Assembly (NCBI GenBank): GCA_964551495.1 | Contig: CAZKCA010000004.1 | Span: 15,439 to 79,438 of the forward strand | Origin: an uncultured Candidatus Saccharibacteria bacterium | Lineage (GTDB): Bacteria; Patescibacteriota; Minisyncoccia; Phycocordibacterales; DATDWN01 | Direction: 5' to 3' | Length of the DNA: 64,000 nt | The notes under the pieces: generated by a model | Seen by the model: the letters and a program-made list of their open reading frames with translations, nothing else | Told to the model about the DNA's origin: nothing | Database searches by the model: none | Shown: piece by piece, positions 32,930 to 61,974 of the stretch | Numbering within the stretch: the first letter of the stretch is position 1 | How the letters are laid out: the number at the start of each line of letters is the position of its first letter | Position numbers and translations under genes: made by a program

Positions 32930-33400
32930 TTATACATATTCTCCATCAATAAAAAATCTTGATAAATTTGGTTCATGTTTTAACTTTTTATAAAACTCAA
33001 CAAAAAGTTTTGACATCCTAAACCACTTACCTTCTGGGATTTCATCCAAATAAAACCATTGCCAATCTTCAGCTTTATGAGGCTCCGGATTTGGAGGTAT
33101 TTCTTCTGACTCTGCTACAGCCACAAAACCTATATGAATCGGTCTTTCTTTTCCATAATAAAAAGTGTTTGACATACATAGAAATTGTGAATCTTTTATT
33201 TTAATTCCAGTTTCTTCCTCCCCTTCTCTAGCTACAGCCATAAAAGCATTTTCCTTGTTTCCATAGTCAACAGTCCCACCAGGAAGTTGCCAACCTCCTA
33301 AATCTGGACCTTTCTTCCTTTTAGAAAGTAGAACTTTGTTTTTTTCCGGATTTAAAATAACTAAACCACAACCAACATAGACTTTATGATCTTCTTTCAT
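32930..33400 (-). CDS. NUDIX hydrolase.
   Basis: Nudix box LPGGTVDYGNKENAFMAVAREGEEETGIKI. Confidence 0.7.
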   Translation of the reverse strand: MKEDHKVYVGCGLVILNPEKNKVLLSKRKKGPDLGGWQLPGGTVDYGNKENAFMAVAREGEEETGIKIKDSQFLCMSNTFYYGKERPIHIGFVAVAESEEIPPNPEPHKAEDWQWFYLDEIPEGKWFRMSKLFVEFYKKLKHEPNLSRFFIDGEYV

Positions 33401-33813
33401 TTTTCATTTTGGTTAAAATATTTCTCCAATATCTCAAAATATTGAGTACCATCATCTACTTCTTTGTAATTATCTTTATTTACCCACCTAAATTTATTGT
33501 GCTCATCACTCAGTATGACTTCTCCAGAAACATATTCGCATTTGAACGCAACAAGGTAAACTTTTTTACCAGTATATTTATGATGAGAAGGAAAAGAATT
33601 TTGCCAAACAGCAAATGGTTCTCCAACTTTTATTTCTAAACCACTTTCTTCCATCACTTCTCTCTGAAGAGATTTGTCCAAATCCATTTCTCCTTCCTGA
33701 ATCTTTCCTCCAGGTAAATCTAAACCCTCAGTTGGGTCACTTAATACCAAAACTTCATTTCCTCTTTTAATAAAAGCTTTTTGTCCAACCCAGTAATTTT
33801 GGTCTTCTTTCAT
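33397..33813 (-). CDS. NUDIX hydrolase.
   Basis: Nudix box LPGGKIQEGEMDLDKSLQREVMEESGLEI. Confidence 0.7.
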   Translation of the reverse strand: MKEDQNYWVGQKAFIKRGNEVLVLSDPTEGLDLPGGKIQEGEMDLDKSLQREVMEESGLEIKVGEPFAVWQNSFPSHHKYTGKKVYLVAFKCEYVSGEVILSDEHNKFRWVNKDNYKEVDDGTQYFEILEKYFNQNEK

Positions 33814-33888: not shown

Positions 33889-34173
33889 CGCGACCGACCG
33901 GACTTGAACCGGCAGCCTCTCCCGTGCACTTATCCAATATTTTCATAAAGGCGTGGACTATATCTTCACCTTAGATTCAAAATCCTTAGGCGCTCTGGTA
34001 TCTAGTCTCTACGGCGCTCTCGTGATAAAAATCACAAGTTCCCACGGTATTAGCATATTCAAGTAATGAACTTAGCCTTCACCGTTATCCCAAAGAGTTT
34101 CAATCTACCATTTCGATAGAAAGCTGCAGTTAACCTACAGGGGAGTGCTCTAACCAAATTGAGCTACGATCGC
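33889..34173 (-). tRNA. tRNA-Asp(GUC) interrupted by a group I intron. Exons 34137-34173 and 33889-33926; intron 33927-34136 between anticodon-loop nt 35 and 36.
   Basis: 5' half GCGATCG-TA-GCTC-AATTTGGTTA-GAGC-A-CTCCC-CTGT. 3' half CAC-GGGAG-AGGCT-GCCGG-TTCAAGT-CCGGT-CGGTCGC-G. The spliced anticodon loop CUGUCAC and discriminator G73 are as in bacterial tRNA-Asp. Confidence 0.7.
33927..34136 (-). ncRNA. Group I (IC3-like) self-splicing intron, ~210 nt, no ORF.
   Basis: The exon end CUGU can pair with intron GCAG (IGS) with a U-G wobble at the splice site. R-like GUAGAGACUAGA and S-like AAGAUAUAGUCC core elements are present. The intron ends in G just before exon 2. Confidence 0.65.
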
Positions 34174-34314
34174 ATTTTTATATATTTATCAAAAATCTCT
34201 TTCTTACGAGCCAAATATAAACCCGTATTTATACCATTATACATAAAATAATATAATTTCAAAGTGATCTTTGCTATTCCGTTTTTTTAAATTTTTTGAT
34301 ATATTGCTTCTATT

Positions 34315-34391
34315 GTCGGCGTAGCTCAGTTGGTTAGAGCGTGGGACTCATAAGCCCAAGGTCGGAGGTTCGATCCCCCCCGCCGACACCA
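34315..34391 (+). tRNA. tRNA-Met(CAU) (elongator or Ile2-type), CCA encoded.
   Basis: GTCGGCG-TA-GCTC-AGTTGGTTA-GAGC...loop CTCATAA...GGAGG-TTCGATC-CCCCC-CGCCGAC-A-CCA. Close to E. coli elongator tRNA-Met. Confidence 0.75.
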
Positions 34392-34572
34392 GAGTGTCTA
34401 GGAGAAAGCTCTGGGAGAGCTTTCGTGGGGGATCGAAGCCCGATTGAGCTATTTTATGAGCTAGCTAAATAAAATAGCCAATTGGGATACTGATCCTGTA
34501 AGGATCGATCCTTCAATACAGAACCGACAAGCAGGAAAATATTTGTCGAAGATTCCCTCCCCCGCCGACACA
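34392..34572 (+). repeat. tRNA-abutting structured element, copy A (family shared with 34822-35016, 52756-53087 and 61734-61901).
   Basis: Starts right after the CCA of tRNA-Met. Contains hairpin gctattttat-GAGCTAGCTA-ataaaatagc and module UACUGA-ucc-UGUAA-gga-UCGAUCC. Ends with cccccgccgacaca, a copy of the tRNA-Met 3' end. Confidence 0.55.
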
Positions 34573-34579
34573 AAAATAT

Positions 34580-34792: not shown

Positions 34793-34821
34793 GATTAGGA
34801 TTTGGTCATAAATTAATAATG

Positions 34822-35016
34822 TAGGGACCAGGATTTTTTCCATAATTTAACTCGCCGTCGCTCATTAAATTATGGAACGCAGATTTTCGACAAGCTCTAC
34901 TGAGTTTGTAAACCGAAAATCTGTGCAAATCCTGACATAAACTGCTCCCAGCAGTTTACTGTCCGCGCAAAATATAAAATAAAAACCGCCCTTTGGGGCA
35001 GTTTTTATTTTGATTG
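34822..35016 (-). repeat. tRNA-abutting structured element, copy D (downstream of minus-strand tRNA-Met).
   Basis: Read on the minus strand it has an imperfect hairpin plus U-run, then the perfect 10-bp stem cagauuuucg/cgaaaaucug enclosing acaagcuc-uacu-gaguuuguaaac, then ccauaauuuaa-UGAGCGACGGCGAG-uuaaauuaugg. It ends aauccuggucccuac, which copies the T-loop/acceptor 3' end of tRNA 35017-35087. Confidence 0.55.
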
Positions 35017-35087
35017 TTGCGGGACCAGGATTTGCACCTGGGCCTACAGGTTATGAGCCTGTCGAGCTACTACTGCTCTATCCCGCT
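35017..35087 (-). tRNA. tRNA-Met/Ile2(CAU).
   Basis: AGCGGGA-TA-GAGC-AGTAGTA-GCTC-G-ACAGG-CTCATAA-CCTGT-AGGC-CCAGG-TGCAAAT-CCTGG-TCCCGCA-A. There is an A1-A72 mismatch. The anticodon stem is not initiator-like. Confidence 0.6.
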
Positions 35088-52666: not shown

Positions 52667-52753
52667 GGAGACGTGGCTGAGTGGTCGAAAGCACCTCACT
52701 GCTAACGAGGCAGGGTCTAAAAGCCCTCCAGGGTTCGAATCCCTGCGTCTCCG
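52667..52753 (+). tRNA. tRNA-Ser(GCU), class II with long variable arm.
   Basis: GGAGACG-TG-GCTGAGTGGTCGAAAGC...loop CTGCTAA...variable CAGGGTCTAAAAGCCCTCC-AGGG-TTCGAAT-CCCTG-CGTCTCC-G. Confidence 0.75.
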
Positions 52754-52755
52754 CA

Positions 52756-52911
52756 GGAGAAATTTAACAAAGTTAAATTTAGTAGAGCAGGTTTTGTAAT
52801 CAAAACCGTCGCGAGGATTCGAAGCCCGATTGAGGTATTTTATGAGCTTACGAAATAAAATACCCAATTGGGGTACTGAAACTGTAAGTTTCGAATCCCT
52901 GCGTCTCCGCA
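52756..52911 (+). repeat. tRNA-abutting structured element, copy B.
   Basis: Hairpin gguauuuuau-GAGCUUACGA-aauaaaauacc (compensatory to copy A). Module UACUGA-aac-UGUAA-guu-UCGAAUCC. Ends with cctgcgtctccgca, an exact copy of the tRNA-Ser 3' end. Confidence 0.55.
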
Positions 52912-53087
52912 ACAGCAGATTGAGTTGAGTACATCTCAACAAAATCTGATGTCGGTAGAAGTTAGGGATGAGAAAGACGGAGGCGGTATACAAGCGAGCA
53001 AAGCGAGGCTTGTCGCCGAGTCGGGGTCGAAAGTTCTTATGAGCGGAGCGAATTAGAAACTTGTGACCGAATCCCTGCGTCTCCGCC
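52912..53087 (+). repeat. tRNA-abutting structured element, copy C (divergent), in tandem with B.
   Basis: GC-richer. Hairpin aaguucuuau-GAGCGGAGCGA-auuagaaacuu. Ends with gaatccctgcgtctccgcc, a third copy of the tRNA-Ser 3' end. Confidence 0.45.
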
Positions 53088-61696: not shown

Positions 61697-61733
61697 AGGG
61701 GTATTATACAGATGATTTTAAAAAGGCACACCA

Positions 61734-61901
61734 GGATTCGACCCTTACAGGGTCAGTACTGAGCACCAGGACTCTCCCTCGAAATTTTTTCGTCGCCACT
61801 CAAAAATTTCTGGGCACCGGTTTGTCGACAAACTCTGGTGAGTTTGTAAACCGACAAACCGTTCGAATCCTTAATACAAAGCTACGCTTTGTACTTACGT
61901 G
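61734..61901 (-). repeat. tRNA-abutting structured element, copy E (downstream of tRNA-Ile).
   Basis: On the minus strand: hairpin plus U-run, then the 10-bp stem cgguuugucg/cgacaaaccg (compensatory to copy D) enclosing acaaacuc-ugguga-guuuguaaac, then UACUGA-ccc-UGUAA-ggg-UCGAAUCC. It ends with cuggugugcc, a copy of the tRNA-Ile T-arm/acceptor 3' end. Confidence 0.55.
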
Positions 61902-61974
61902 TGCACGTACCAGGATTCGAACCTGGGACCGGTCGTGTATAAGACGACTGCTCTACCAACTGAGCTATACGTGC
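61902..61974 (-). tRNA. tRNA-Ile(UAU).
   Basis: GCACGTA-TA-GCTC-AGTTGGTA-GAGC-A-GTCGT-CTTATAC-ACGAC-CGGTC-CCAGG-TTCGAAT-CCTGG-TACGTGC-A. Fully canonical cloverleaf. Confidence 0.8.

Follow-up and report, generated by a model that had tools for sequence, protein, structure and literature searches.

A tRNA-Asp(GUC) gene of Patescibacteria type split between positions 35 and 36 by a compact group I intron

The tFind survey (Williams, bioRxiv 2020, 10.1101/2020.01.27.920355) extended the group I introns of bacterial tRNA genes from four classic types to 21 classes of tRNA and insertion site, and the class inserted between positions 35 and 36 dates to that survey. Introns at this site were subsequently described in the tRNA-Asp(GUC) and tRNA-Asn genes of Patescibacteria, where the site is enriched and endonuclease genes are rare (Nakagawa et al., mSystems 2026, PMC13011429; preprint 2025, 10.1101/2025.07.03.662931). 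Precise self-splicing in vitro was reported there for the tRNA-Asp intron of GCA_001029755.1 (Microgenomatia) and for one tRNA-Asn intron; a mutant with the terminal G changed to C gave no mature tRNA or exon ligation and accumulated the intron-3' exon intermediate. Here we analyze a 64,000-nucleotide (nt) stretch of contig CAZKCA010000004.1 (assembly GCA_964551495.1, positions 15,439 to 79,438; "the window" below, meaning the whole stretch), which holds a tRNA-Asp(GUC) gene split at 35/36. The intron is real, had been correctly interpreted in a first-pass annotation, and is already known, the window copy being a further ortholog; because the arrangement was published in 2025-2026 together with in vitro splicing of a related copy, it is one more example and not a discovery. 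The first-pass annotation had remarked that an insertion at 35/36 of tRNA-Asp is not among the classic cases, and it does lie outside those four, but it is no longer new in view of PMC13011429 and the tFind survey.

The closest described system is the tRNA-Asp intron of the Paceibacteria genome GCA_023898525.1 (PMC13011429), which shares with the window intron the tRNA, the anticodon, the site, P1 (CUGU with GCAG), the core, and the 3' end ...AAGUG/CACG (slashes mark splice sites here and below). The two are 87% identical over aligned positions, which make up 80% of the 210 nt of the window intron, and the host belongs to the same phylum and probably to the same class as the window host; the window intron differs in its shorter P6 and P8 (210 versus 256 nt in all). 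The assayed tRNA-Asp intron of GCA_001029755.1 is more distant (75% over aligned positions) and, unlike the window intron, has UAAU in J3/4 and a CGGGG-type P4. In the tRNA-Asn(GUU) and tRNA-Tyr(GUA) introns at 35/36 of Patescibacteria, which are known from PMC13011429 and the tFind survey, the guide is again GCAG and its target in the 5' exon again C32-U33-G34-U35, as in the window, and the compact introns of GCA_030583765.1 (Asn) and GCA_016699995.1 (Tyr) are 82-83% identical to it over aligned positions. An additional P7.1/P7.2-like insertion is present in many tRNA-Asn introns, and an HNH endonuclease gene in some of them, whereas the window intron has neither. The classic IC3 introns of tRNA-Leu(UAA) (34/35, cyanobacteria), tRNA-fMet, tRNA-Arg(CCU), and Azoarcus tRNA-Ile(CAU) occupy another site and another host tRNA. 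They resemble the window intron in their length (~200-250 nt), in their lack of P7.1/P7.2, and in common R and S core sequences, but they have a 3' domain of 51-55 nt with CAGACCACAAAC, compared with 35 nt in the window, and different J3/4 and P4 sequences.

The split gene and its spliced product

Run with intron search, ARAGORN calls a tRNA-Asp(gtc) with a 210-nt intron (cctgt/.../cacgg), and the 75-nt RNA spliced in silico, which it likewise calls tRNA-Asp, forms a canonical cloverleaf with anticodon loop CUGUCAC and G73. U35 precedes the intron and a G ends it (cctgt/a...g/cacgg). The first-pass annotation had proposed these two tRNA halves and this canonical product, and it had placed both halves exactly. 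Its further claim, a compact group I intron without an open reading frame (ORF) inserted at 35/36, is borne out by Rfam, ARAGORN, the wobble pair in P1, and covariation, and the longest ORF overlapping the 210 nt has no more than 37 amino acids (aa). Computation thus establishes both exons and their junction, the covariation-backed core fold, and the homology to published introns, and we hold with high confidence that the gene is a Patescibacteria (Paceibacteria-like) tRNA-Asp(GUC) in which a compact group I ribozyme of 210 nt, free of any homing-endonuclease gene, separates U35 from C36. The coordinates of the gene, of the intron elements, and of neighboring features are collected in Table 1.

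Table 1. Coordinates of the split tRNA-Asp gene, the elements of its intron, and neighboring features in the window
Feature	Coordinates	Strand	Basis or remark
tRNA-Asp(GUC) exon 1, nt 1-35, ending C32-U33-G34-U35	34137..34173 (37 nt)	minus	ARAGORN with intron search; aligns with intronless syntenic tRNA-Asp genes
Group I intron, 210 nt	33927..34136	minus	Rfam RF00028; covariation-backed fold; ORF list
tRNA-Asp(GUC) exon 2, C36 to G73, CCA not encoded	33889..33926 (38 nt)	minus	ARAGORN with intron search; intronless homologs
P1 hairpin, CUGU/AG (34140-34135) with internal guide CUGCAG (34129-34124)	34124..34140	minus	RNAalifold pairs 5-9/18-22
5' splice site after U35, wobble with G34127	34137	minus	U·G in 32/32 sequences
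P2 hairpin, GAAA(U) loop (L2)	34104..34120	minus	6/6 pairs with compensatory changes; L2 GNRA in 29/32
P3 5' strand, CUUUGG	34090..34095	minus	Pairs with 33998-33993; compensatory changes in 4/6 pairs
P4-P5-P5a-P6-P6a domain, including J4/5 AAG and J5/4 UAA	34013..34085	minus	Helices 5-9 of pair count
J6/7 and P7 5' strand (GUA-GAGACUA, "R" element), bulged A34008	34003..34012	minus	Invariant in 32/32, partly fixed by scan pattern
P7, with G34009-C33955 and G34007-C33956	34009-34003 with 33960-33955	minus	Invariant in 32/32
P3 3' strand, CCAGAG	33993..33998	minus	Pair count
P8 hairpin, CCUAAG...CUAAGG motif resembling tetraloop receptor	33967..33992	minus	P8 pairs covary; receptor role putative
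J8/7 (AAGAUA, 33966-33961) and P7 3' strand UAGUCC ("S" element)	33955..33966	minus	Single match in window; invariant P7 pairing
P9 hairpin, GAAA loop (33944-33941)	33935..33950	minus	5/5 counted pairs covary; L9 GAAA in 31/32
Omega-G, terminal guanosine	33927	minus	3' splice site 33927/33926; G invariant in 32/32; junction confirmed by intronless homologs
Putative promoter and ~55-nt leader upstream of tRNA-Asp	34174..34262	minus	TTGAAA 34262-34257, 15-nt spacer, TATAAT 34241-34236 preceded by TG
tRNA-Met with insert	34315-34391	plus	
tRNA-Met with insert	35016-35087	minus	
tRNA-Ser with insert	52667-52754	plus	
tRNA-Ile with insert	61901-61974	minus	

Compared with 12 intronless tRNA-Asp(GUC) genes on related contigs, the spliced product is identical at 52 to 67 of 75 positions (best, 89%). 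On related metagenome contigs, intronless tRNA-Asp(GUC) genes sit 1 to 2.7 kb downstream of gatA on the same strand, all with the loop CUGUCAC. Since intronless alleles (L125, L128, L130, L131, L132, L135, and L140) and intron-bearing alleles (L127, on the same contig as L047, and the window) occupy the same position downstream of gatA, relatives differ in whether they carry the intron at this one syntenic site. No other tRNA-Asp gene was found in the 64-kb window by ARAGORN or Rfam scans, and a permissive Rfam scan and a core-motif search found no further group I intron in it.

The covariance-model search that the first-pass annotation had suggested, with the Rfam model Intron_gpI (RF00028), detects the group I core (P3-P9) at 56.3 bits (gathering score, 50); in permissive scans, E is 1.4e-13 for a 701-nt region and 1.3e-11 for the whole window. 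The match spans 33934-34230, past the tRNA end, and aligns P3-P9 correctly; because the model puts P1 and P2 in the upstream leader, it gives no splice sites. Of the six tRNA genes that default ARAGORN reports in the window, none is a tRNA-Asp, and an Rfam scan of the 64 kb at the gathering threshold with default filters reports tRNAs only, omitting the intron despite its score above gathering. A terminator scan flags the true P1 hairpin (34140-34124) as terminator-like. The relevance of the locus lies mainly in annotation: its tRNA-Asp gene is missed by default tRNA finders and by the default Rfam scan, and without intron-aware calling the genome would seem to lack tRNA-Asp, which would lower its completeness score, or else the gene would be mistaken for tRNA-Ala(UGC).

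Fold and covariation of the intron

We scanned species-representative genomes (one per species) for the core pattern GTAGAGACTAKATACC, which yielded at least 120 loci, mostly in metagenome-assembled genomes (MAGs) of Patescibacteria. A splice-site caller requiring a U before the intron, a guide that pairs this U with a G, a G as the last intron base, and an anticodon stem re-formed by splicing resolved 72 of the 121 candidates made up of the matches listed and the window. Among the matches listed, the hosts so assigned are tRNA-Asp(GUC) at 35/36 (31, hence 32 including the window), tRNA-Tyr(GUA) at 35/36 (15), tRNA-Asn(GUU) at 35/36 (about 15), and tRNA-Leu(UAA) at 34/35 (6). Five "Asp" calls by ARAGORN that this P1-aware caller missed were all mis-called Asn or Tyr genes. 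tRNA-His(GUG) was rejected as a host, the two His calls by ARAGORN being mis-called Asp or unresolved genes.

The 32 tRNA-Asp introns were aligned (alignment A1) and folded with RNAalifold, the P3 pseudoknot was added, and pairs were counted. RNAalifold recovers P1, P2, P4, P5, P5a, P6, P7, P8, P9, and the anticodon stem. Over the 53 pairs in 12 helices, 95.5% of the alignment cells pair, a share that falls to 36-44% once the 3' partners are shifted by 1-3 columns; compensatory changes occur in 32 of the 53 pairs, and none of 500 shuffles reaches any observed measure. Covariation support reaches P2, P3, P4, P5, P5a, P6, P8, P9, and the anticodon stem, and within P1 the pair next to the wobble covaries as well (A-U 24, C-G 6, G-C 1). 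The P1-P9 fold, including the P3/P7 pseudoknot, is supported by alignment A1.

The P1 of the first-pass annotation, in which exon CUGU pairs with intron GCAG and leaves a U-G at the 5' splice site, recurs in the 32-sequence alignment, and the R-like and S-like core elements and the 3'-terminal G that it had pointed out were recovered as GUAGAGACUAGA (34012-34001), AAGAUAUAGUCC (33966-33955), and G33927. The pair G34007-C33956, next to the bulged A34008, is the presumed guanosine-binding pair, by analogy with other group I cores. As GAUA (34002-33999) alone separates P7 from P3', helices P7.1 and P7.2 are absent, and P7 and P7' lie 42 nt apart. The CCUAAG in P8 corresponds to the 5' half of a common motif, the GNRA-tetraloop receptor. 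In a rough neighbor-joining tree, the closest introns among the matches listed are those of two Zambryskibacteria tRNA-Asp genes (L044 and L086; 88% over 172 conserved columns).

Mechanism, alternative readings, and descent

Because a homologous tRNA-Asp intron from Microgenomatia splices in vitro (PMC13011429), ordinary group I self-splicing is most likely the mechanism of the window copy. The transcript would be a precursor of ~285 nt plus the leader, in which the intron would fold into its P1-P9 core and the guide CUGCAG would pair with C32-U35 of the exon plus intron bases 1 and 2, so that the wobble of U35 with a G would fall at the 5' splice site. The first attack, after U35, would come from an external guanosine held in P7; the terminal G (33927) would then replace this guanosine, and the freed 3'-OH of U35 would attack after the terminal G. 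CCUGU would in this way be joined to CACGG, giving the anticodon loop CUGUCAC and the junction ...CCCCUGU/CACGGGAG... During these steps the exons would be held together by the anticodon stem rather than by a P10 helix. The covarying anticodon stem presumably aligns the exons, a role that Zaug et al. are said to have described for it in the Anabaena pre-tRNA in 1993. Splicing of the intron would probably be necessary for the supply of tRNA-Asp in the host cell, which would make this one more reduced-genome bacterium whose apparently only visible tRNA-Asp gene needs a ribozyme for maturation, a point already in the literature.

Several observations weigh against this reading of the gene. The Rfam score lies a mere 6 bits over the threshold, with P1 and P2 misaligned to the upstream leader, and the minimum-energy fold of the single sequence is no better than those of shuffles (z = -1.0), as expected since the ribozyme is pseudoknotted. 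That P7 and the P1 wobble do not vary in alignment A1 is in part a product of selection, because a pattern from the P7 region found the loci and the caller demanded P1 pairing. A P10 pairing of the 3' exon with the guide sequence is not apparent from the sequence, U·U mismatches occur at two places in P9 of the window copy, and its receptor-like motif in P8 has CUAAGG instead of UAUGG as its 3' half. The window, moreover, is 64 kb of the genome, and a second, intronless tRNA-Asp gene may lie elsewhere. The mismatches in P9, the noncanonical motif in P8, and a view limited to 64 kb, with no other tRNA-Asp in it, would suit a decayed relic that no longer splices, the copy being a tRNA pseudogene while an intact tRNA-Asp elsewhere serves the cell; yet the P9 mismatches are shared by four relatives, the core helices otherwise all pair, and the window copy keeps every position that is invariant across the 32 homologs. 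Its exons also form a perfect cloverleaf, a conserved promoter-like motif and leader are kept upstream, and intron-bearing and intronless copies of the same anticodon rarely coexist in one genome (PMC13011429), so that we consider a relic very improbable. Even less credit is due to the call of a tRNA-Ala(UGC) with an intron at 33/34 (exon 1 ending ...CCCCU, intron GU...AUAAG, exon 2 starting UGCACGGG). With its boundaries, too, the intron would follow a U and end in a G, the same alternative is called by ARAGORN or tFind for some of the homologous genes in Table 1 of PMC13011429, and two loci in our scan of relatives gave both the Asp and the Ala reading (among the matches listed). Against it, U33 pairs with an A and U35 wobbles with a G in all 32 sequences, and the spliced tRNA has G3-C70 in its acceptor stem, with no G3·U70, together with G73, G10, and C38, which fit tRNA-Asp. 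G3·U70 is the defining identity element of tRNA-Ala, whereas G73, G10, and C38 are expected in tRNA-Asp. The syntenic intronless homologs read CUGUCAC, and the sequenced in vitro products of a homolog were spliced at 35/36 (PMC13011429). The splice sites are placed at 35/36 by the terminal G and by the wobble that U35 forms with a G in P1; this wobble decides between Asp 35/36 and Ala 33/34 directly, without comparison to other genomes.

With the intron placed at 35/36 of tRNA-Asp, its subgroup is less straightforward. The first-pass annotation had likened it to small IC3 introns such as that of Azoarcus tRNA-Ile, and an intron of this type, or of the cyanobacterial tRNA-Leu type, instead of a member of the IA-labeled Patescibacteria lineage, would agree with the absence of P7.1/P7.2, GAUA alone lying between P7 and P3', and with a P7-P7' distance like that of IC3-labeled tRNA introns (26-43 nt) and unlike that of IA1/IA2-labeled ones (60-77 nt). 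The GNRA loops L2 and L9 and the receptor-like motif of P8 also appear to resemble the Azoarcus architecture. Extra helices P7.1/P7.2 between P7 and P3' were reportedly named as the IA hallmark by Michel and Westhof in 1990; the window intron lacks them, and its P7-P7' distance falls short of the IA1/IA2-labeled range. Identity over the whole intron does not separate the two groups, all labeled references being 70-79% identical to it over aligned positions. The elements behind the proposed likeness, GUAGAGACUAGA and CCUAAG, are not subgroup specific: GUAGAGACUAGA occurs in IC3-labeled tRNA introns and the near-identical core GCAGAGACUAGA in IA-labeled ones. The 3' domain, by contrast, matches the IA1/IA2-labeled 35/36 introns and not the IC3-labeled ones. 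Its 35 nt, a single GAAA hairpin and a 7-nt tail ending in GUG, equal theirs in length and are 57-77% identical to them, while the IC3-type domain is of a different type, 51-55 nt long and 45-53% identical in a comparison with few references (five, namely, four labeled IC3 in the tables of PMC13011429 and the Anabaena tRNA-Leu control). The layout of P1, P2, and J2/3 (gcagcuu-hairpin-ugaaa) is common to IA1-labeled tRNA-Asn introns, and the subgroup covariance models of PMC13011429 assign the Patescibacteria tRNA introns to IA and none of them to IC. Membership in IC3 thus appears unlikely, and we lean toward the view that the window intron is a derivative of the IA-labeled 35/36 lineage that lacks P7.1/P7.2.

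A broader possibility, which we put forward tentatively and on balance doubt, is that one compact, endonuclease-free intron lineage has moved repeatedly among the Asp, Asn, and Tyr tRNAs that share C32-U33-G34-U35. For recognition such a lineage would need only CUGU, read by its guide GCAG, and it would presumably move by reverse splicing. It would explain the preference for 35/36 in Patescibacteria; the guide sequence, the wobble pair, and reverse splicing are not among the topics of PMC13011429. The movement is hinted at by the identities, by the nesting of Tyr introns among Asp introns, and by the intronless alleles at the same syntenic tRNA-Asp site. The window Asp intron is nearer to introns of Paceibacteria tRNA-Asn and Doudnabacteria tRNA-Tyr (82-83%) than to that of Microgenomatia tRNA-Asp (75%). 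In an unbootstrapped neighbor-joining tree of 65 compact introns, two tRNA-Tyr(GUA) 35/36 introns from Yanofskybacteria MAGs (L011 and L062) fall inside the Asp clade, and the Microgenomates-type Asp introns (L010, L038, L081, and L114) group apart, with Asn and Tyr introns. This placement hints that there may have been occasional switches between tRNAs sharing CUGU.

Host genome and neighboring tRNA loci

The window is densely packed, low in G+C (~33%), and cellular in its gene content, with genes for GatA, NAD-dependent DNA ligase, CTP synthase, a release factor, and NUDIX hydrolases. Counterparts of LigA, GatA, a neighboring 311-aa protein, and the release factor occur in the same order in MAGs of Zambryskibacteria, Parcubacteria, and Paceibacterota, with identities of 60-74%; on the strength of this gene identity and synteny, the host is placed in Patescibacteria and is probably a member of the class Paceibacteria. 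Looking up the NUDIX protein led to one exact match, a 1.3-kb Logan contig from SRR12989705 that is identical to the window, whereas no record was found for GatA. A phage origin was considered and rejected, as blastn against phage records gave only tRNA-sized matches to two neighboring tRNA-Met genes and the gene content is cellular.

A promoter-like motif and leader are kept upstream of the intron-bearing tRNA-Asp gene in at least 15 Paceibacteria relatives, and the motif would, from its sequence, serve as a promoter; a consensus promoter scan misses it because its spacer is 15 nt. Directly downstream of the tRNA-Asp gene are tandem NUDIX hydrolase genes (156 and 138 aa, overlapping by 4 nt; 32930-33813, minus strand). 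Upstream of the first gene lies the conserved extended -10-like motif TGTGGTAGAAT; similar motifs occupy this place in relatives.

Four tRNA genes of the window (listed in Table 1) are each followed by inserts of 135-190 nt, at 34389-34575, 34806-35020, ~52755-53080, and ~61730-61900, with two inserts in tandem after tRNA-Ser; no such inserts were found at the tRNA-Asp, tRNA-Gln, and tRNA-Thr genes of the window. Each insert ends in an 11- to 13-nt copy of the T-arm/acceptor 3' strand of its own tRNA, as with CCCCCGCCGACAC at 34377-34389 and again at 34559-34571. Some sequence is shared between inserts: 34433-34508 is 87% identical to 52819-52894 over 76 nt, and 34884-34933 is 82% identical to 61822-61871 over 50 nt. 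The inserts look like tiny elements targeting tRNA 3' ends and are presumably the mini-elements mentioned in the first-pass annotation.

The tRNA-Ile gene at 61901-61974 (minus strand) has the anticodon UAU (ARAGORN; 74 bits in Rfam). Most bacteria read AUA with a lysidine-modified CAU tRNA, and tRNA-Ile(UAU) is uncommon.

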